From Escherichia coli 042 (GTDB lineage: Bacteria; Pseudomonadota; Gammaproteobacteria; Enterobacterales; Enterobacteriaceae), in the NCBI RefSeq assembly GCF_000027125.1, contig NC_017626.1: DNA of 64,000 nucleotides; one strand, written 5' to 3'. Positions 17,517-29,137 of the stretch are shown here, piece after piece. A program made the translations under genes and the position numbers. Each line of letters starts with the position of its first letter. Within the stretch, counting starts at the first letter, position 1. Below the pieces are notes generated by a model. It saw only the letters and a list, made by a program, of their open reading frames with translations. It did not search any database and was not told the origin of the DNA.

Positions 17517-17550
17517 TGTTGAGTCTAGAGCAGGCATCGCCCCTCACCCA

Positions 17551-18321
17551 TCACTCCACCCCAATCTCCACCCCAATCTCCATCCCATCAAACCCCGCCT
17601 CAAACCCCGACGGCAGTGCGTTTTCCATCAGCCACGCATCAAACTGGTGGCTGATATGGGTCAGAATCACCCGTGGCGAGCGGATAACCTGATTCAGCGC
17701 AAGCACGGTATTTAAATCACAGTGATTACGCGGTGCATCCTCGCGCGGCGGGTGGCTGCAATCAATCACCATTACCTGTGGCTGATTATTGCGTAAAAAT
17801 TTCAGCGTTTTTTCCGGCAGGCCTGCGGTGTCAGACAGCCACGCCACCCGGCTATGTGCCGTTTCCAGTAAATAGCCGAAAGTGAGTTTCGAATGATTGA
17901 GCGGCAGCGGCGTGACCTGTAATCCCTGCAAATCAAACACTACAAACGGTTCCACCGTGTGGCTGAAATCAAGCAGGCCCGGATGTTTAAACAGATCGTC
18001 GCAGCCCTGTTCATCCGGCGGGCCGTAGACCGGGATCGAATCGCCCACGCCCCAGCGCAGCGGAAACAGCCCCTGCACGTGATCCATATGGTAGTGCGTC
18101 AGCAAAAACTGCTGGAACGATCCGGGCGACCAGCGATCGGCGAGATCGTGCAGCCCGGCGTCGATCAGGGTGATCGCGTCGTTAAACTTCACGACGCCGC
18201 TGCATGGCTGGCGGCGATACTGTGGTGAGCGCCGCGCTCTGACGCAGGCCGCGCACTCGCAGCCCCATGCCGGAACGCCCTGTGCGCCGCCGGTGCCGGT
18301 GAGCGTGAGGGTCAGACTCAT
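17551..18321 (-). CDS. phnP: PhnP, phosphoribosyl 1,2-cyclic phosphate phosphodiesterase
   Basis: 256 aa metallo-beta-lactamase fold (HYHMDH); last gene of the phn operon; C-terminus carries a 12-bp tandem duplication. Confidence 0.9.
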
Positions 18322-19301: not shown

Positions 19302-20437
19302 CAGAACACCCTTTTACCCTGACGCCAGACGTGGTCGATATGAATGTGGTTGCCCTTGCGATGCGCCAGCACCAGGTCGGCGCGTTTGCCCTCGCCAATC
19401 ACCCCGCGATCCTGAAGATTAAGCGCCTGCGCCGGATTTTTAGTCACCAGCTTCACCGCCTGCGGCAGCGTAAAGCGGTTGCTCTCGTCATCGGCGACGC
19501 GAAATGCCGCATCGAGCAGGCTGGCGGGGTAGTAGTCGGAAGAGAGGATATCCAGCAGGCCAAGCTGCGCCAGTTCACTGGCCGCCACGTTGCCGGAGTG
19601 CGAACCGCCGCGCACGATATTCGGCGCGCCCATCAGCACGTTCATGCCATGCTTGCGCGAGGCTTCTGCCGCTTCGAACGTGGTGGGAAATTCGGCGATC
19701 ACGCTGCCAAGCTGGTGGGATTCGGCAACGTGCGCGTGCGTGGCGTCATCGTGGCTGGCGAGGGCAATGTGTCGCGCGCGGCACATTGCGGCGATGGTTT
19801 CGCGATTTGGCTGCGACCAGCGTGCGGCGAGCGCCAATTGCTCTTCTTCGTACTGCTGCATCTGCGCATCGGTGAGGGAATATTTGCCCTGATAATATTC
19901 GCGATACTTCTCGCGATTGGCGAACTGGCGCTGGCCTGGCGAGTGGTCCATCAGCGATACCAGCGTCACCGGTTCGCGCTGCACCAGTTTTTCAAACAGC
20001 GGCAACGTGGTGTGGTGCGGCAGTTCGCAGCGCAGGTGCAGGCGGTGCTCGGCGCGGTTGACGCCGCGTTTCTGCGTCTCTTCGATGGCGTTGATCATCT
20101 TCTCCAGATTCTCCAGCCGATCGCCGCCGTCGCGCACATCACCAATCGCCACGGCGTCCAGTACGGTGGTGATGCCGCTTGCCACCATCAGCGCGTCGTG
20201 GCTGCTCATCGCCGAATGGGCGGGCCAGTCGACTTTCGGGCGCGGGGTGAAGAATTTATCGAGGTTGTCGGTATGCAGCTCAATCAGGCCGGGTAGTAGC
20301 CAGCCACCTTCGCCGTCCATCGCTTCCGGCTGGCGGCTCTGGCTTTCGGCAAAGGCGCGAATTTCGCCATCCTGTACTTCCAGTGAACCGTGCACCACTT
20401 CGTTTTCCAGCACCAGTTTGACGTTATTGATAATCAT
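19301..20437 (-). CDS. phnM: PhnM, RPnTP diphosphatase (amidohydrolase fold)
   Basis: 378 aa; operon position; overlapping stop/start with neighbours. Confidence 0.9.
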
Positions 20438-21114
20438 GAAGAGGCTCCCATCGGGTGCAGGCGGTCGGCGACGTCATTGCGTACGGCTTCGTCATGGAAG
20501 ATACCGACGATGGCTGCGCCACGGGCTTTAGCTTCGAGAATCAGTTCCACCACCGCGGCGCTGTTTTTGGCGTCCAGCGAGGCGGTAGGTTCGTCGAGCA
20601 GCAGAATGGGGTAGTCGACGATAAAGCCACGGGCGATGTTGACGCGCTGCTGTTCGCCGCCGGAGAAGGTCGATGGTGCAAGGTGCCACAGGCGTTCAGG
20701 CACGTTCAGGCGCGTCAGTAATCGGGCGGCTTTAGCGGCGCAGGCTTCACGCGGTACGCCGGTATCGAGCAGAGGCTGCATCACCACTTCCAGTGCCGAA
20801 ATACGCGGGATGACGCGCAGAAACTGGCTCACCCAGCCGATGGTGGTTTTGCGGATCTCCACCACTTTGCGGGCTGGCGCGGTGACCAGGTCTACCCATT
20901 CCTCACCGTGTTTGATCTGGATTTGCCCTTCGTCGGGCAGATAGTTGGCGTACAGCGAGCGCAGCAGGGTTGATTTTCCGCTGCCGGAGTGGCCGTGAAG
21001 CACCACGCATTCGCCTGCGTTGACGGTGAGCGAGGCACGTTGTAAGACGGGCAGGCGCACGCCGTTTTGCTGGTGCAGGATGAAGGTTTTACTGACGTTT
21101 TGTACGTTAATCAT
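20434..21114 (-). CDS. phnL: PhnL, ATP-binding component of C-P lyase complex
   Basis: Start chosen at [11 protein letters not shown] (226 aa) inside the 240-aa track ORF; Walker [10 protein letters not shown]. Confidence 0.9.
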
Positions 21115-21157
21115 TTTTCGCCTCGTGGTTCGCATATTGGGGATCGGCGCGCGCATT

Positions 21158-21207
21158 GCCCCTCACCCTAGCCCTCTCCCCTCTGGGGAGAGGGCCGGGG
21201 TGAGGGG
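21158..21207. repeat. GC-rich imperfect palindromic element (boxC-like) between phnL and phnK
   Basis: cccctcaccctagccctctcccctctggggagagggccggggtgagggg forms nested inverted repeats; a related sequence recurs at 26472-26558. Confidence 0.7.
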
Positions 21208-21230
21208 ACCAGCGCGCACGGTGTTGCAAC

Positions 21231-21989
21231 TCAATTCTGCAAAACCGATGACACCAGCAGCTGGGTATACGGATGATGCGGGTCGTCGAGCACGCGGTCG
21301 GTTAACCCACTCTCCACTACTTGCCCCTGCTTCATCACCAGCAAACGGTCCGCCAGCAGGCGGGCGACGCCAAGATCGTGGGTAACAATCACTACCGCCA
21401 GGTTCAGCTCCACCACCAGGCCGCGCAGCAGGTCGAGCAGGCGCGCCTGCACCGACACATCCAGCCCGCCGGTTGGTTCGTCCATAAACACCAGCTTCGG
21501 ATGCGTCACCAGGTTGCGGGCAATCTGCAAACGCTGCTGCATGCCGCCGGAAAAGGTGGTTGGCAGGTCGTCGATCCGGTTAGCGGGAATCTCGACCTCT
21601 TCCAGCCACTTCTGCGCGGTGGCGCGAATATCGCCGTAATGACGCGCCCCGGTCGCCATCAGCCGCTCGCCGATATTGCCGCCTGCCGACACCTGGCGGC
21701 GCAGGCCGTCGAGCGGATGCTGATGCACCACGCCCCATTCGGTGCGCAGCAGGCGACGGCGATCGGCCTCGCTCATGCCATAGAGGGAACGGTTTTCATA
21801 GTGAATCTCCCCTTGCTGCGGCGTCAGACGCGCGGAAATTGATTTCAGCAGCGTGGTCTTCCCGGAGCCGGACTCCCCGACGATGCCCAGCACTTCCCCC
21901 GGCCATAAATCAAAAGAGACATCGCTAAAGCCTTTGCCCGGCGCGTAAAGGTGGGTCAGGTTATTGACCGAAAGTAAAGGTTGATTCAT
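21231..21989 (-). CDS. phnK: PhnK, ATP-binding component of C-P lyase complex
   Basis: Start chosen at MNQPLLSVNNL (252 aa); Walker A GESGSGKTT; ABC signature. Confidence 0.9.
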   Translation of the reverse strand: MNQPLLSVNNLTHLYAPGKGFSDVSFDLWPGEVLGIVGESGSGKTTLLKSISARLTPQQGEIHYENRSLYGMSEADRRRLLRTEWGVVHQHPLDGLRRQVSAGGNIGERLMATGARHYGDIRATAQKWLEEVEIPANRIDDLPTTFSGGMQQRLQIARNLVTHPKLVFMDEPTGGLDVSVQARLLDLLRGLVVELNLAVVIVTHDLGVARLLADRLLVMKQGQVVESGLTDRVLDDPHHPYTQLLVSSVLQN

Positions 21990-22831
21990 TGGTTTTTTGC
22001 CTCGCTCTGTTGGCGGCAATAATCGGTATCGGAGCAGACAAACATGCGGTTTCCGGCGTCATCCAGCACCACTTCGTCGAGATAGCTGTGGGTCGATCCG
22101 CAGATGGCGCATGGCTCATCCCACTGCTGAACGGTGAACGGGTGATCGTCGAAATCGAGGCTTTCCACGCGGGTAAACGGCGGCACCGCATAGATGCGCT
22201 TCTCGCGTCCTGCGCCGAACAGCTGCAGGGCGGGCATCATGTTCATTTTCGGATTATCGAATTTTGGGATCGGCGATGGGTCCATGACGTAGCGCCCGTT
22301 CACCTTCACCGGATAGGCATAAGTGGTGGCGATATGACCGAAGCGGGCGATATCTTCATACAGTTTCACCTGCATCACGCCGTACTCCTCCAGCGCGTGC
22401 ATAGTGCGGGTTTCCGTTTCGCGCGGCTCGATAAAGCGCAGCGGTTCCGGGATCGGTACCTGGAAAATAATGATCTGATCTTCGGTCAGCGACGTTTCGG
22501 GGATGCGGTGGCGGGTCTGGATAAGCGTCGCATCGTCCGTACGTTCAGTGGTGTTTACCCCGGTCACGCGCTTAAAGAAGTTGCGAATTGATACGGCGTT
22601 GGTGGTGTCATCCGCACCCTGGTCAATCACCTTCAACACGTCGCTTTCGCCAATCACGCTGGCGGTAAGCTGGATACCACCAGTTCCCCAGCCGTACGGC
22701 ATCGGCATCTCGCGCCCGCCAAACGGCACCTGATAACCGGGGATCGCCACCGCTTTTAAGATGGCGCGGCGGATCATGCGTTTGGTCTGCTCGTCGAGGT
22801 AGGCAAAGTTGTAGCCGCTCAGATTAGCCAT
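21986..22831 (-). CDS. phnJ: PhnJ, C-P lyase catalytic subunit (radical SAM-like, Cys cluster)
   Basis: Start chosen at MANLSGYNFAYLDEQ (281 aa); C-terminal CxxCGSxxxYLDE cysteine motif. Confidence 0.9.
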   Translation of the reverse strand: MANLSGYNFAYLDEQTKRMIRRAILKAVAIPGYQVPFGGREMPMPYGWGTGGIQLTASVIGESDVLKVIDQGADDTTNAVSIRNFFKRVTGVNTTERTDDATLIQTRHRIPETSLTEDQIIIFQVPIPEPLRFIEPRETETRTMHALEEYGVMQVKLYEDIARFGHIATTYAYPVKVNGRYVMDPSPIPKFDNPKMNMMPALQLFGAGREKRIYAVPPFTRVESLDFDDHPFTVQQWDEPCAICGSTHSYLDEVVLDDAGNRMFVCSDTDYCRQQSEAKNQ

Positions 22832-23888
22832 GGTTCTGCTCCTGTTGCAGACGTTTGAGTAGCTCCAGTTCGGCCTGGAAATCGACGTAGTGCGGGAGTT
22901 TAAGGTGCGAGACAAAGCCTGCGGCTTCGACGTTGTCGGCATGCGCCAGCACGAACTCTTCATCCTGCGCCGGGCCTGTCGCGTGCTCGCCGTACTCCGG
23001 GGCTTGTAGAGCGCGGTCAACCAGCGCCATCGCCATCGCTTTGCGCTCGCTCATGCCGAACACCAGCCCGTAGCCGCGCGTGAAGTGCGGCGGCTCATCC
23101 GGCGGGTCGATAAAACCGTTGACCATTTCACATTCGGTCATCAGCAGTTCGCCGACGTTCACCGCAAATCCCAGCTCTTCCGGCACAATCGACACGTCGA
23201 TATAGCCGCTGCGGATTTCGCCTGCGAACGGATGATTGCGTCCGTAACCACGCTGGGTGGAGTAGGCCAGCGCCAGCAAATAGCCTTCGTCGCCGCGCAT
23301 TAATTGTTGCAGGCGGGAGGAGCGTGAGCAGGGGTAAACCGGCGGCGTGCGGGTGATGTCATCCGGCTGTGCGCCGCTATCCTCCTCAAACTTCGCCAGC
23401 CCCTGACGCGCCAGCAGGCTGAAAACGTGCGGCGACGGCTGTTGTGCGCTGTCGGCGGTGGTCAGCGTCGGCGCTTCGCCGTTTGCCAGCAGGGTGAAAT
23501 CGAGCAGGCGATGGGTGTAGTCGTAGGTTGGGCCAAGCAGCTGGCCGCCGGGAATATCTTTATAAACCGCTGAAATACGCCGTTCGAGACGCATCTCCGT
23601 GGTGTCGAGCGGCTCGCTTACCGCGAGCTTAGCCAGCGTGGTGCGGTAAGCGCGTAGCAGGAAAATCGCTTCGACGTTATCGCCGCTGGCCTGTTTCAGC
23701 GCCAGCGCCGCCAGTTCGCGGTCGGCAATGCCGCCTTCGGTCATCACGCGATCTACTGCAAGATTAAGCTGCTGTTCAATCTGGGCGACGCTCAGTTCAG
23801 GCAAATCGGTATTGCCCCGGCGTCGGCTCTCTTGCAGGGCGTGGGCGGCGTCGATCGCCTTCTCGCCCCCTTTCACGGCAACGTACAT
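22824..23888 (-). CDS. phnI: PhnI, C-P lyase core component (nucleosidase)
   Basis: Start chosen at [12 protein letters not shown] (354 aa) inside the 394-aa track ORF. Confidence 0.9.
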   Translation of the reverse strand: MYVAVKGGEKAIDAAHALQESRRRGNTDLPELSVAQIEQQLNLAVDRVMTEGGIADRELAALALKQASGDNVEAIFLLRAYRTTLAKLAVSEPLDTTEMRLERRISAVYKDIPGGQLLGPTYDYTHRLLDFTLLANGEAPTLTTADSAQQPSPHVFSLLARQGLAKFEEDSGAQPDDITRTPPVYPCSRSSRLQQLMRGDEGYLLALAYSTQRGYGRNHPFAGEIRSGYIDVSIVPEELGFAVNVGELLMTECEMVNGFIDPPDEPPHFTRGYGLVFGMSERKAMAMALVDRALQAPEYGEHATGPAQDEEFVLAHADNVEAAGFVSHLKLPHYVDFQAELELLKRLQQEQNHG

Positions 23889-24472
23889 CAGCACACCTCC
23901 ACATGAGTGGTTCGCGGGATAGCCAGCAGCCGCTCGCCGCAGGTCAGGATCAGGTCGATGCCGAGCGGGAACGGGTGCGGGCGCTCGGTAAGTTCGTGCA
24001 GAATGCACTCCGGCAGCTGCGGGGCGATCATTCGTTCTTCGGCAATACCCGCGCCAGTAAGGCGCAGCATGCGCCCGCCGCTCAGGCTGACGACCTGTAA
24101 AATCAGCGTCGCGCCCGCTTCTGGCGCAACAGCGGTGCCGCTGGAAAGGGCGTTAAGCTGTTCGCTGGAAATCGCCTCATCCGTTACCGCGAAGGTCGCC
24201 TGTTCCGGCTGGCTGACCAGCGGCGCGTTGGTATGAAAACGCAGGCTCTGGCTGACGATATCGTTACTTAATGGCGCAGAAAGCCACACCGGCGTGTCGT
24301 TATCGGCCAGCGTCAGCAGCACGCTGGTGGTGGCGATATTCAGTGGCTGCCAGCCGCGCTTGAGCTGATGCAGGGCGACAATCACGCCCGGCTCGCTCAT
24401 GGCCTTTAACAGGCGACGAAAACTGTGCTGGGCATCCTGCACGGGAAGCATAAAAGCGGTTTCCAGGGTCAT
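23888..24472 (-). CDS. phnH: PhnH, C-P lyase core component
   Basis: 194 aa; operon position with overlapping junctions. Confidence 0.9.
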
Positions 24473-24921
24473 GCGTTATCTCCGCGAACCATCGTAAAGA
24501 AGTCGACCCGGCTGGCGTTCACTTCGGCCTGGCGTGCGGCAATGCGTGCCATACGGTCAGCGTCCAGCGGGGCAATAAGGGTTTCTGATAAGTTTTGAAA
24601 ATGGCGGGTTTGCTGCATCAGCGCGTCAATCAGCGCGCAGCGTTCGGCGTGCTGTTTGTCGCGCCCCAGCACCCAGCTGTAGCCGAGCGTGCCGTCAGTC
24701 AGGCGTACGGTGGCGCGGGTGAGCGTGGCGTCGCCAGCAAAAAAGCGTTCGCCGGTGCCACCCATCCGCGCCTGAATCTGCACCAGGCCGGTTTCAGCGG
24801 CGCGGATTACTTCATAGTCGGCAGTGATGTTCAGCGCCTTCAGGCGGGCTGCCAGTTCAGCCGGTTGGCTGTGTGCCAGTACGGACATCCAGTGCTGGCG
24901 GGTCGCGGTATCTGCGTGCAT
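24469..24921 (-). CDS. phnG: PhnG, C-P lyase core component
   Basis: 150 aa; operon position. Confidence 0.9.
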
Positions 24922-25647
24922 TCAGTGCTCCATAGTGAATTCAATCATGTCGGCGCGCGTCAGGCTGACGGAGTACTCCGCCGGGCTGCTTTCACCGTCA
25001 CGGTGGTTAAGGGTGCGCACGCACAGCAGCGGCGACATATTCGGGATTTCAAGACGCTGGCACTCTTTGGCCTGGGCGCGGCGGGCGCTGATCCGCGTCT
25101 GGCTGCGGCGCAGCGCAATCCCCGTTTGCTCGCGCAGAAAATCGTGCAGCGAGCCGCTGTCGAAGCGTTGCAGCGTCGGCCAGAGGGTGAGGTCCGCAAA
25201 GTAGTGGTCGATTAAACAGAGCGCGACGCCGTTGACCCGGCGCAGGGTGCGCAGGTGGATAACGTTCTCGCCCTCGGTTATCCCCAGCGCGTCAGCGACG
25301 TGACCGGAGGCCGGGCGCAGCACCGACAGCAGTTTTTCGCTGGTGGGATGGCTGCCCTGATCCAGCAGGTTCTGGCTAAAACGCGCCTGGGCGTTGAGCG
25401 GGTAATCGAACGGGCGCATCAGTACCAGCACGCCGACGCCCTGACGGCGCTGTACCCAGCCTTTTTCCACCAGTTGGTCGATGGCGCGGCGCAGGGTGTG
25501 GCGGTTCACCTCAAAGCGCGCCGCCAGTTGCTGCTCGGCGGGAAGATAGTCGCCGCAGCGGTAGTGTTGACGAAGCTCCTGCTCAAGTTTTGCGGCTATC
25601 TCCTGATAGCGTGTTGGGTAGCTGGTCGGATGTGTAGACAAGTGCAT
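24922..25647 (-). CDS. phnF: PhnF, GntR-family transcriptional repressor of the phn operon
   Basis: 241 aa from MHLSTHPTSY...; GntR-type N-terminal HTH and UTRA-like C-terminal domain. Confidence 0.9.
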   Translation of the reverse strand: MHLSTHPTSYPTRYQEIAAKLEQELRQHYRCGDYLPAEQQLAARFEVNRHTLRRAIDQLVEKGWVQRRQGVGVLVLMRPFDYPLNAQARFSQNLLDQGSHPTSEKLLSVLRPASGHVADALGITEGENVIHLRTLRRVNGVALCLIDHYFADLTLWPTLQRFDSGSLHDFLREQTGIALRRSQTRISARRAQAKECQRLEIPNMSPLLCVRTLNHRDGESSPAEYSVSLTRADMIEFTMEH

Positions 25648-25667
25648 AGATATCAATGCCTCGCTTA

Positions 25668-26447
25668 TCAGATAAAGTGCTTACGCAACCGTTGAGAGAG
25701 GAAATCCAGCAGGCTGACCGTGACGATAATCAGCACCATCAGGGCGCAGGTTTGCTGGAACTGGAAACCGCGAATCGCTTCCCACAGCGTGACGCCGATC
25801 CCGCCCGCGCCGACCATGCCAACAACGGTGGCCGAACGGACGTTGGATTCGAAGCGATAGAGGGAGTAGGAGATCAGCAGCGGCATCACCTGCGGCAGCA
25901 CGCCGTAGAGGATCTCTTCGAGCTTGTTGGCACCGGTGGCGCGAATACCTTCCACCGGGCCGGGTTCAATTGCTTCTACCGCTTCGGAAAGCAGTTTGGA
26001 GAGCACGCCGGTGGTGTGGATAAACAGCGCCAGCACGCCAGCGAACGGGCCAAGGCCGACGGCGACCACGAACAGCATGGCGAAGACCATTTCGTTAATG
26101 GCGCGGCAGGCGTCCATCAGGCGGCGTACGGGCTGGTAAACCCACCACGGCACCAGGTTTTCGGCGCTCATCAGACCGAAGGGGATGGAGAGAACCACCG
26201 CCAGCGCGGTGCCCCAGACGGCGATTTGCAGCGTGACGGCCATTTCGGTGAGGTAATCCTGCCACTGGCTGAAATCGGGCGGGAAGAAGTCGGCGGCGAA
26301 GGTTGCCATGTTGCCGCCGTCTTTAATCAGCGTGAGCGGGGCCATTTCCGCGCCCTGCCACGAGACGACCAGCACGGCGAGAACAATGGCCCAGCTCAGA
26401 AGCGAGAACCAGCTGCGCTTGGGTGGGGCGATGGTGATGGTTTGCAT
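25668..26447 (-). CDS. phnE: PhnE, phosphonate ABC transporter permease (uninterrupted reading frame)
   Basis: Continuous 259-aa polytopic membrane ORF; no frameshift within the gene. Confidence 0.85.
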
Positions 26448-26471
26448 GTTTGGCTCCGTTTAATGTTTTCT

Positions 26472-26558
26472 CCCTCTCCCTGTGGGAGAGGGCCGGGGTG
26501 AGGGCATCAGCGTGCGCATTTTCCCCTCATCCTAACCCTCTCCCTCAAGGGAGAGGGG
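26472..26558. repeat. Two GC-rich palindromic elements (boxC-like) between phnE and phnD
   Basis: ccctctccctgtgggagagggccggggtgagggc and cccctcatcctaaccctctccctcaagggagagggg; same family as 21158-21207. Confidence 0.7.
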
Positions 26559-26572
26559 ACCGATCGAGCACA

Positions 26573-27589
26573 TTACTGCACCGCTTTACTCACCGAACTC
26601 ATCGCGCTTAACGCGTTGTTCAGGCGGTCCAGGTCATCCAGTTGCGCCTGAATGGCGCTGGTTTTTGCCAGCTTGTCCTGCTCATTCAGCCCTTTATTAC
26701 CTTTTACGCCCTGCATCTCTTTAAACAGTGCGAGTTGGCGAATCGGCACCAGTTGCAGGTCGCTGGAGGCGCGGAACGGGGCCCATCCCAGGCGCTCCAG
26801 CACCGCTTTCTCTTCCGGCGTTTTGCCGTAGTTCATAAAGAAGTCGTAGATCTTGTCTTTGGTGGTTTCGGACAGATTTTTGCGCCAGACGATCGGATCG
26901 CCTGGGATCAGCGGCGATTTCCAGATCACCTTCAGTTCTTTGAGCTTCTCCGGTGCGGAGGTTTTCAGCTTGTCGAGGTTTTCGGTGTTGTTGGTCGCCA
27001 CATCCACCTGTTTGTTGGCGACGGCCAGCGCGTTGGTTTCATGCCCGGCGTTGACGGTGCGCTTGAAGTCGCTGGCGGAGATATTGTTTTTGGCGAAGAC
27101 GTAGTAGCCGGGGACGAGGAAGCCAGAGGTGGAGTTAGGATCGCCATTGCCGAAGGTGAGATCTTTACGCTTCGCCAGCAGATCATTCAGGTTGTTGATC
27201 GGACTGTCTTTGTTGACGATCAACACGCTCCAGTAACCCGGCGATCCATCCGCCGCGACCGTCTGGGCGAAGACCTGACCGTTGGCGCGATCCACCGCTT
27301 CCATCGCCGACAGATTGCCGTACCAGGCGATATCCACTTTATTGAAGCGCATCCCCTGGATAATGCCCGCGTAGTCCGGGGCAAAGAAGGCGTTGACCTT
27401 TACGCCCAGCTTCTTCTCCATATCCTGTAAGAACGGAGTCCATTGCGGTTTCAGGTTTTGCTGTGATTCCGTTGAAATAATGCCGAAATTCAGCGCCTTT
27501 TCCTGCTCTTCGGCGTGCGCCGGGCTTAACAGGGTGCTGAGGCTGAACATGCTGGTGAAGGCCAGCGAGGCAATTATCTTAGCATTCAT
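26573..27589 (-). CDS. phnD: PhnD, periplasmic phosphonate-binding protein
   Basis: 338 aa with signal peptide; operon position. Confidence 0.9.
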   Translation of the reverse strand: MNAKIIASLAFTSMFSLSTLLSPAHAEEQEKALNFGIISTESQQNLKPQWTPFLQDMEKKLGVKVNAFFAPDYAGIIQGMRFNKVDIAWYGNLSAMEAVDRANGQVFAQTVAADGSPGYWSVLIVNKDSPINNLNDLLAKRKDLTFGNGDPNSTSGFLVPGYYVFAKNNISASDFKRTVNAGHETNALAVANKQVDVATNNTENLDKLKTSAPEKLKELKVIWKSPLIPGDPIVWRKNLSETTKDKIYDFFMNYGKTPEEKAVLERLGWAPFRASSDLQLVPIRQLALFKEMQGVKGNKGLNEQDKLAKTSAIQAQLDDLDRLNNALSAMSSVSKAVQ

Positions 27590-27613
27590 TCGTTTTCCTC
27601 AATGATGGGGATG

Positions 27614-28402
27614 TCAGGCAGCTTTCGCGTTTTCTTCGACGCGGTTGATGCTGCGGTAGAGATGGTCAAAACGTTCGTTATCAAACTGTTGGCTGCTGCC
27701 GTCGTAGAAGACGTGCCCCTGGCGCAGGGCGACGATGCGTTCGCAGTAGCGCAGGGCGTAATCCACCTGATGCAGCGTGACGACCACGGTAATGCCGTCG
27801 TTCTGGTTAATGTCGCGCAGGGTGTCCATCACGATGCGCGCCGATTCCGGGTCCAGCGAGGCGATGGGTTCGTCCGCCAGAATCACCTTCGCCTGCTGCA
27901 TCAGCGCGCGGGCAATCGCCACACGCTGCTGCTGTCCGCCGGAGAGGGTGGAAACTCGCTGATGGGCAAAGTGCACCATGCCAACGCGGGTCAGCGCCTG
28001 TAACGCGCGCTGTTTCTGCTCGCGGGTGAAGTAGCTAAAACAGGTGCGCCAGAATGGCGTGCTGCCGAGCGCGCCAATCAGCACGTTCTCCAGTACGCTC
28101 AGGCGATTCACCAGGTTGAATTGTTGGAAGATGTAGCCGGTATTGGCGCGGCTTTTGCGGATATCGCGGGCCAGGCGGCCTTCGCGCTGGACTGTGCGGC
28201 CCAGCAGCTCGATATGGCTACCGGCAGATTTATCGCCGGTAATCAAACCGCTTAAGTGACGTAAAAGGGTGGATTTGCCGGAACCCGACGGCCCAAGCAG
28301 AGCCACCATTTCACCGTGATGAATGTTCAGATCAACCGCGTGCAGCGCCTGATGCTGATTGAAGGTTTTGGCGAGCTTCTCGACACGGATAATCGTTTGC
28401 AT
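27614..28402 (-). CDS. phnC: PhnC, phosphonate ABC transporter ATPase
   Basis: 262 aa; Walker [10 protein letters not shown]; ABC signature LSGGQQQR. Confidence 0.9.
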
Positions 28403-28440
28403 GATGCAGCCTCCCTAAAAAAGTGGCTCCATCGTGGCGG

Positions 28441-28479
28441 ATTATTGTGACGATTTGGTTAATTAAAAGTGACTAACAG
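28441..28479 (-). promoter_or_regulatory. Pho box (PhoB binding repeats) of the phnC promoter
   Basis: Minus strand reads CTGTTAGTCACTTTTAATTAACCAAATCGTCACAATAAT, with direct repeats resembling the CTGTCAT-N4 Pho box consensus, about 40-75 bp upstream of the phnC ATG. Confidence 0.6.
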
Positions 28480-28534
28480 ATGAAGAGTTAACGGGAATTC
28501 GATGACAGTGCGGGAGGGCGGGCCTCCCGGCGGA

Positions 28535-28978
28535 TTATTGCGTTGGTTGTTGTTTGACGACATTAATCATCCACGGTACGCCAAATTTATCGGTGACTTT
28601 GCCGAAGCCATGCGCCCAGAAAGTTTCCTGCCAGGCCATTTCGATTTTTCCGTTGGCGGCAAGATTGTCAAACCAGCGTTTCCCTTCTTCGACCTGTTGC
28701 GAATCGAGCACTAACGTAAAGCCGGAGTAGCTGGCTTTTCCTGACGGTATAGCATCGCTCATCATGATATCGCTTCCGGCAATGCGCACATTGGCGTGGG
28801 CGATGGCGGTATCGGGAAATTGCATTCCGGAAGGGCAGTTCTCGGCGCTGTCCTGCGCTGATTTTGGCATTTCGCCGAAGCTGATTTTATAGATCAGTTC
28901 AGCGCCCAACGTACGTTGATAATAAGCAATTGCGTCGGCACAGTTACCGGCAAAAGAGAGGTAGGGACTTAACGGCAT
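28535..28978 (-). CDS. yjdN: Glyoxalase/bleomycin-resistance fold protein (PhnB)
   Basis: 147 aa; recognised as YjdN/PhnB. Confidence 0.85.
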   Translation of the reverse strand: MPLSPYLSFAGNCADAIAYYQRTLGAELIYKISFGEMPKSAQDSAENCPSGMQFPDTAIAHANVRIAGSDIMMSDAIPSGKASYSGFTLVLDSQQVEEGKRWFDNLAANGKIEMAWQETFWAHGFGKVTDKFGVPWMINVVKQQPTQ

Positions 28979-29137
28979 GATGGTGACCTCAGTTAAGAGA
29001 AGCCAGTTAAGTGTAGTTCGAAATTTATACAGATGAGAGGGAAGCCTGATAAGACGCGGTCAGCGTCGCATCAGGCAGTCGGCATCGTTGCCGGATGCGG
29101 CGCGAGCGCCTTATCCGGCTTACCGATCACAATACAA

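Follow-up and report, generated by a model that had tools for sequence, protein, structure and literature searches.

The spacer between phnD and phnE in the phn operon of Escherichia coli 042 is, almost certainly and on the strength of its letters, filled from end to end by an inverted pair of type A and type B units of the enterobacterial repeat BoxC (PIT element, TMECO). Taken as a whole, the explanation that we find best is a BoxC pair that also acts as a stabilising hairpin in the phn mRNA, a combined reading that we hold in even balance between acceptance and doubt. BoxC is a textbook enterobacterial repeat, so finding it here is not in itself news; the element is already known, and this locus-specific allele is present in hundreds of sequenced E. 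coli genomes. The repeat is ordinary, and it may be its position that matters. The modest value of our results lies in the comparison of this position among species, where a stable stem-loop follows phnD in 77 of 79, with at least three unrelated families of sequence supplying it.

The window, by which we mean the whole 64,000-nucleotide stretch of DNA analyzed, carries on its minus strand a phn operon of the E. coli type, recognizable in its open reading frames (Table 1), and its phn DNA is 96-99% identical in nucleotide sequence to that of E. coli genomes. The permease gene phnE is intact here and is a cryptic allele in K-12. A first-pass annotation had placed two copies of the GC-rich palindromic family seen at 21158-21207 between phnD and phnE. 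Both the location and the kinship proved correct, as the copies lie within the phnD-phnE spacer and have in common with 21158-21207 the CCCTCNCCC/GGGNGAGGG arms, the TA and CG linkers, and a GCGYGCGC flank. Each copy, however, consists of three arms (one C arm and two G arms) and lacks the full four of the palindrome at 21158-21207.

Table 1. Features of the phn region in the window, with positions counted from its first letter.
Feature	Position	Strand	Basis
phnC	27614-28402	minus	ORF
phnD, periplasmic phosphonate-binding protein gene	26573-27589	minus	ORF and annotation of homologous E. coli loci
phnD stop codon	26573-26575	minus	
phnE, permease gene, intact, 259 aa	25668-26447	minus	ORF
phnE start codon	26445-26447	minus	
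phnE Shine-Dalgarno, GGAG	26454-26457	minus	
phnF	24922-25656	minus	ORF
phnG	24469-24921	minus	ORF
phnD-phnE spacer, 125 bp	26448-26572		
Composite BoxC unit, 108 bp, two inverted three-arm units	26465-26572		
Element 1, CCCTCTCCC-TGT-GGGAGAGGG-CCG-GGGTGAGGG, type B	26472-26504	plus	Published pattern, 0 mismatches
Element 2, CCCTCTCCC-TTGA-GGGAGAGGG-TTA-GGATGAGGG, type A	26557-26524	minus	Published pattern, 1 mismatch
Composite centre, CATCAGCGTGCGCATTTTC	26505-26523		Sequence comparison and alignment
phnK-phnL four-arm palindromic BoxC, reference copy, GCGCGC flanks	21149-21217		
One-arm BoxC remnant, CCCCTCACCC, just 3' of phnP	17540-17549		

The two copies lie on opposite strands, and their third arms point inward to a GCGTGCGC centre. 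The whole centre of the composite (26505-26523) equals the two flanks, right and left, that border the four-arm element between phnK and phnL, overlapped at GCGYGCGC, and the four-arm element is in turn made of two overlapping TMECOs (21160-21206). Element 2 is the unit that reads in the sense of the phn mRNA; its block on the plus strand is CCCCTCATCC-TAA-CCCTCTCCC-TCAA-GGGAGAGGG (26522-26557). The composite ends in GTTTTCT... and ...CGATCGAGCACA, and it spans the distance from the phnD stop codon to 7 nt short of the phnE Shine-Dalgarno sequence; the true repeat unit is the entire composite and not each copy. The pattern greatly exceeds chance: GGGAGAGGG occurs six times in the window against 0.2 expected, confined to the phnD-phnE and phnK-phnL loci, and the complete three-arm pattern has four matches in the window, against none in 60 dinucleotide shuffles.

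BoxC, later the PIT element and later still TMECO, are successive names of one repeat, with a literature that runs from Bergler 1992 and Bachellier 1999 through Hoyne & Maher 2000 and 2002 to Holder et al. 2015 (PMC4666352). Using the published TMECO pattern, CCCTCNCCC N3-6 GGGNGAGGG N3 GGGNGAGGG with at most one mismatched position (PMC4666352), we found that both units conform, the plus-strand unit without mismatch and the minus-strand unit with one. The types of this repeat are told apart by the second loop, TTA in type A and CCG in type B, and close pairs always combine one A with one B on opposite strands; K-12 has five such pairs, and its commonest TMECO form is "type A mm" (PMC4666352). 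The phnD-phnE pair follows this pairing rule, with a second loop of CCG in the plus-strand unit and of TTA in the minus-strand unit. By alignment, the 108-nt composite has 94.5% identity to the intergenic element between hrpB and mrcB of K-12, which appears as TMECO 1+2 in Table S2 of Holder et al. (PMC4666352), and it is through this element that homology to the K-12 members of the family can be drawn. The pair is also intergenic and strain-variable, the phnD-phnE spacer existing in at least six allelic forms in E. coli genomes. Because pattern and paralogy agree, we regard its membership in BoxC as established. MG1655 holds 23 TMECO copies, all of them intergenic (PMC4666352). The phnD-phnE spacer of K-12 holds a REP/BIME, and the phnD-phnE copy is therefore not among the 23; in the accessible parts of the supplement of Holder et al., in which 63 TMECO loci were surveyed, we found no phnD/phnE entry. 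The first-pass annotation missed both that this is a named, characterized repeat family and that this junction varies greatly from one E. coli strain to another.

A REP/BIME identity for the window's own element, for which we required an imperfect palindrome of 35-40 bp with a consensus of the GCCGGATG...CATCCGGC type, was rejected because no REP core motif occurs in 26448-26572. In alignments with the alleles of K-12, B, and E308, the sequence between the conserved flanks is unrelated to the composite of the window. A scan of 20000-29000 returned no Rfam family above the gathering threshold; it gave only sub-threshold matches to microRNA-hairpin models, with E values of 0.04-0.7 that are at chance level.

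Within E. coli, a 421-nt junction query matched 5422 of 5426 complete genomes, with coverage of at least 80% in only 1338, and a junction-specific 121-nt query placed the double-unit allele in about 348 of the 5426. We compared ten E. coli alleles by sequence. The composite allele (124-125 nt) is carried by the window, by Ecol_316 (NZ_CP018957), whose spacer is identical to that of the window, and by OkiPb01714. ETEC1701 has a collapsed hairpin of 60 nt with the loop ACA (L003 449-508), which corresponds to a deletion between the GGGAGAGGG direct repeats, 65 bp from one another; a different collapse of 67 nt, in which the loop TTGA was kept, is found in O91 RM7190 (L089 199-265), and strain 98218 has a collapsed unit of 64 nt in inverted orientation (L090 199-262). 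A canonical REP/BIME of 104-105 nt occupies the site in K-12, B, and Ecol_656, and E308 has a BIME with a partial deletion (89 nt). No backbone sequence is common to the BoxC and REP alleles within the stretch bounded by the stop codon of phnD and the Shine-Dalgarno sequence of phnE, and a stable hairpin is retained in all ten alleles compared (-22 to -73 kcal/mol). The ends of the inverted collapsed unit of 98218, GTTTTCT... and ...CGATCGAGCACA, are intact, as might be expected of a discrete unit able to insert or to invert. Instability of the family, including the decay of palindromic pairs to a plain hairpin, has been described by Holder et al. (PMC4666352).

The RefSeq copy of K-12 has no repeat features annotated in its phn region. 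Its annotated phnD-phnE spacer of 54 nt is an artefact, since the start of the phnE1 pseudogene (L001 10444-11336) was set inside the REP; the real spacer, with its BIME, measures about 105 nt, like that of E. coli B. Between phnK and phnL, where the window has its four-arm BoxC, K-12 has a two-REP BIME within the same conserved flanks (L001 5897-6006). The phnD-phnE and phnK-phnL junctions, both of them internal spacers of the phn operon, therefore swap repeat family between strains. On the 3' side of phnP, K-12 carries a BoxC of about 100 bp (L001 2225-2330), listed as TMECO 22 in Table S2 of Holder et al.; the window retains the one-arm remnant, and its sequence looks like the outcome of a deletion between arm-like repeats. 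At the 3' end of phnP itself, the 12-bp unit CCACCCCAATCT (17556-17590, minus strand) is tandemly duplicated relative to K-12, which fits a phnP open reading frame of 256 aa versus 252 aa. BoxC units also occur between flgH and flgG in the flagellar cluster of the E. coli plasmid pMTY18781-3 (L008 1501-1684), one of only 11-34 plasmid matches versus thousands on chromosomes.

In the sense of the mRNA, the spacer is predicted to form a single long hairpin whose outer, middle, and inner stems pair the arms of one unit with those of the other; its free energy is -65.6 kcal/mol (z -6.55), which none of 200 shuffles equalled. An alternative fold consists of three stacked local hairpins (-51 to -57 kcal/mol), which as models of folding during transcription would be more plausible than the single long hairpin. 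The first-pass annotation had called for each element to be folded; structure was found in the pair, and the units folded singly yield no more than a stem of 9 bp at about -18 kcal/mol, with z from -1.0 to -1.8, which is not significant against shuffles of equally biased sequence. The RNA of the phnK-phnL reference element folds at -68 kcal/mol (z -8.8); as single-stranded DNA, each strand of the composite reaches about -28 kcal/mol (z about -4.2). The main predicted stem begins 13 nt past the phnD stop codon and leaves the start codon and Shine-Dalgarno sequence of phnE outside; a weak outer flank helix of the MFE fold overlaps the Shine-Dalgarno sequence. The stem is followed in the mRNA by AGAAAACAUUAAAC, with no U-tract. 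Identity as an intrinsic terminator was rejected, since a GC-rich stem is present but no U run follows it, and since a scan of the minus (mRNA) strand over 26300-26750 found no terminator-like or promoter-like site. A G-quadruplex in the phn mRNA was rejected as well: its G-tracts are not continuous (GGAUGAGGGG), and the C-arms that complement them lie next to them, a layout in which hairpins are expected to prevail.

To place this junction in a wider setting, we scanned for PhnD with one genome per species, which gave 80 loci, mostly from Enterobacteriaceae with two from Vibrio. The phnD stop and phnE start were located by tblastn, with phnD-phnE results for 79 loci, and a spacer was called stably structured when its MFE was at or below -15 kcal/mol. 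By this measure, the phnD-phnE spacer (median 104 nt, median z against shuffles -5.7) is structured in 77 of 79 species, which do not amount to 77 independent events because the sampled species are related. BoxC-type sequences make up about 36 of the 79 spacers, whether as single hairpins, as compact palindromes, as head-to-head pairs, or as composites in either orientation; REP-type sequences make up at least 22. Among the remaining spacers are REP-like sequences, remnants of BoxC, and GC-rich hairpins of unrelated sequence, these last in Atlantibacter, Enterobacillus, Vibrio, and bacterium B14. Between the end of the last stem and the phnE start codon lie a median of 22 nt. The composite is found in opposite orientations in different genera, which, together with the inverted unit of strain 98218, would be tolerable for a symmetric hairpin role.

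Two sets of loci in this comparison are of interest in their own right. Pseudocitrobacter faecalis (L009) and P. vendiensis (L010) encode a PhnD 99% identical to that of the window, and their DNA identity to the window is 89-90% over phnCD and 95-96% over phnE and downstream; this mosaic may reflect an exchange of part of the phn operon between genera, to go by the sequences. The spacer of P. faecalis is 251 nt long and holds four TMECO units, and that of P. vendiensis holds a collapsed hairpin. A Pseudocitrobacter origin for the window was rejected, because its nucleotide identity to Pseudocitrobacter is 89-96%, against 96-99% to E. coli, and because Ecol_316 has the very same spacer. Further, four loci (L028, L053, L077, and L084) have expanded arrays in phnD-phnE spacers of 200-280 nt, where tandem copies of about 40-50 nt, either degenerate BoxC-like hairpins or the repeat ACGAGTAAACGAAGGCACGGCGCCC..., lie beside intact BoxC units.

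The foremost rival to a role in the mRNA is that BoxC at this locus is a selfish or neutral repeat, and phnD-phnE a permissive hot spot where it has no effect on phn expression; BoxC units, in the manner of REPs, would build up in those few spacers of operons where an insertion is tolerated, and perhaps an existing hairpin attracts more palindromic elements. Such a repeat would be at home in the extreme polymorphism of E. coli (composite, two collapse products, inverted unit, BIME, and partial BIME), in the restriction of the composite to the 348 or so genomes given above, and in a window strain without the BoxC that K-12 has after phnP. The family has been linked to genomic instability, and two dedicated studies reportedly found no function (PMC4666352). 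Two of the 79 species also get by with a bare phnD-phnE spacer of 22-23 nt that has no hairpin. A neutral repeat is harder to reconcile with the neighbouring, non-overlapping spacers, which are seldom structured (6 of 80 for phnC-phnD, median 24 nt; 4 of 73 for phnE-phnF, median 11 nt) against the 77 of 79 at phnD-phnE, or with the perfect stem of at least 9 bp that is kept in every collapse product. Nor does it account for the taxa without BoxC or REP at this site (Atlantibacter, Enterobacillus, and Vibrio), which have a unique GC-rich hairpin there. Constant structure, changing families, and bare neighbouring spacers are hard to explain by the indiscriminate insertion of repeats, and we consider the neutral reading unlikely.

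What we propose for the composite, by analogy and with a confidence that stops just short of even, is that it works like the REP stabiliser between malE and malF and favours phnCD mRNA over phnE-P. The idea of the first-pass annotation that the binding-protein gene is favoured over the genes downstream is a reasonable analogy with malE-malF and is partly supported, with indirect comparative backing from the stem-loop seen in the phnD-phnE spacer of 77 of 79 species. The spacer would be transcribed within a single phnC-P polycistronic mRNA, and its RNA would fold, 13 nt past the phnD stop, into a stem-loop of great stability, as a single long hairpin or as three local ones, with the ribosome-binding site of phnE left free by the main hairpin. 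Because it has no U-tract, the hairpin would let RNA polymerase pass; after endonucleolytic cleavage farther downstream, it would block 3'-to-5' exonucleases, and the phnCD segment, which includes the binding-protein gene, would outlive phnE-P. The role would reside in structure and not in sequence, such that REP/BIME or unrelated hairpins could fill the same position elsewhere. At the DNA level, the same element would be an unstable palindrome able to form an intrastrand triplex, which collapses, inverts, or is replaced between strains.

The composite has the structural marks of the stabiliser class, namely a stable predicted stem-loop without a U-tract that lies directly 3' of phnD and inside an operon. 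In the model case, malE mRNA is protected by the 3' structure of the malE-malF intergenic region, and among five ABC operons of E. coli, the part stabilised was in every case the substrate-binding gene (PMC5927463). Under phosphate limitation, phnC, phnD, and phnN were the only phn genes differentially expressed in K-12 (PMC7657598), which has the REP allele; we take this as a weak hint in line with a stabiliser, and beyond this indirect K-12 hint we found nothing in the literature on a discontinuity in the phn transcript. Many K-12 TMECOs lie 11-23 nt past a stop codon, according to Table S2 of Holder et al., who themselves found no link of TMECOs to gene function or operon position and tied the family to genomic instability and frequent loss (PMC4666352). 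This instability and frequent loss suggest weak constraint on any one copy.

The same short distance between stop codon and stem also admits an opposite effect, in which ribosomes finishing phnD collide with the stem, stall, and are rescued by trans-translation, so that less PhnD is made. REP hairpins no more than 15 nt past a stop have been reported to stall ribosomes and lower the expression of the upstream gene (Liang, Rudd & Deutscher 2015, as relayed in PMC12306157), and with a stop-to-stem distance of 13 nt in the window, stalling could offset or reverse the proposed gain for PhnD. Among species, the first stem begins a median of 6 nt past the stop and within 15 nt in 73 of 77, but this tight spacing may merely reflect elements that fill a short spacer. 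The precedent, as relayed, is limited to REPs and does not extend to BoxC, and a brake on PhnD would be counter-intuitive given that ABC binding proteins are normally needed in excess (PMC5927463). We therefore regard a translational brake as improbable.

A role in DNA alone, where a purine-motif intrastrand triplex or a cruciform, formed in DNA left single-stranded by replication or transcription, would serve as a replication pause or a variation-generating recombination hot spot, seems to us very improbable. It draws on the stable triplexes that consensus oligonucleotides form in vitro (Tm 70-82 deg C), as seen in CD and NMR work that included a type A with mismatch and a type B, and on the greater variation of TMECO loci than of control loci (PMC4666352); in vivo, however, DMS footprinting gave no triplex signal, and addition of the complementary strand led to duplex (PMC4666352). 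The composite does have one triplex-capable unit on each strand, and deletions between direct repeats 64-65 bp apart explain its collapsed alleles, but instability is a property and not a function, and the unrelated hairpins at the same junction in other taxa would be left unexplained. A triplex in the phn mRNA itself was rejected, since RNA reportedly does not form triplexes of the purine motif.

Least probable of all is a partial terminator or attenuator, at which RNA polymerase would terminate or pause and send fewer transcripts into phnE-P. Espeli et al. are said to have shown in 2001 that BIMEs attenuate transcription, which counts in favour of such a site, and Metcalf & Wanner reportedly found in 1993 that phnE-P depend on read-through from the phnC promoter, which counts against it. 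The hairpin is very stable and GC-rich, as attenuation would require, but no U-tract follows the stem, the terminator scan of the mRNA strand was empty, and PIT elements are reported to act neither as promoters nor as terminators and to leave RNA polymerase unaffected (Hoyne & Maher 2002, via PMC4666352).

Were the stabiliser reading to hold, it would give BoxC its first assigned role, in which it would shield mRNA from decay between cistrons and so set the stoichiometry of PhnD to PhnE. The phn operon offers a clean natural experiment, with alleles that have the BoxC composite, a collapsed hairpin, or a BIME, and these bear both on BoxC as a REP-like stabiliser of mRNA and on the effect of stop-proximal hairpins on the output of binding proteins. 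A broader suggestion, which we advance tentatively and are more inclined to doubt than to accept, is that BoxC is the functional equivalent of REP and that selection at phnD-phnE keeps "some stable hairpin" just downstream of the binding-protein gene; unique hairpins, REP/BIMEs, and BoxC composites may then have replaced one another over evolution as interchangeable modules. For annotators, this is a warning that different repeat families met at a single locus can be analogous in function and not noise.

Set beside known systems, the phnD-phnE pair shows no essential difference from BoxC/PIT/TMECO, with which it agrees in pattern, A and B loops, inverted A+B pairing, and intergenic site, as well as in strain-to-strain instability that includes collapse to a plain hairpin. 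Relative to the BoxC of phnK-phnL, which is a compact four-arm palindrome, it differs in having its third arms turned inward across the centre. With intrinsic terminators, it shares a GC-rich stem-loop downstream of a stop codon; unlike them, it has no U-tract. It is also located within an operon in which the later genes depend on read-through, and PIT elements were negative for terminator activity in the account cited above. The closest functional parallel is with the REP/BIME stabilisers, of which malE-malF is the model (Newbury/Higgins 1987; Dar & Sorek 2018, PMC5927463). Like them, the composite is a GC-rich palindrome without a U-tract, and like the malE-malF element, it directly follows the gene of an ABC binding protein and precedes that of a permease. 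The sequences are unrelated, and stabiliser activity is a feature of REP that for BoxC we only infer, yet true REP/BIMEs sit at the phnD-phnE position itself in E. coli K-12, in E. coli B, and in Citrobacter.
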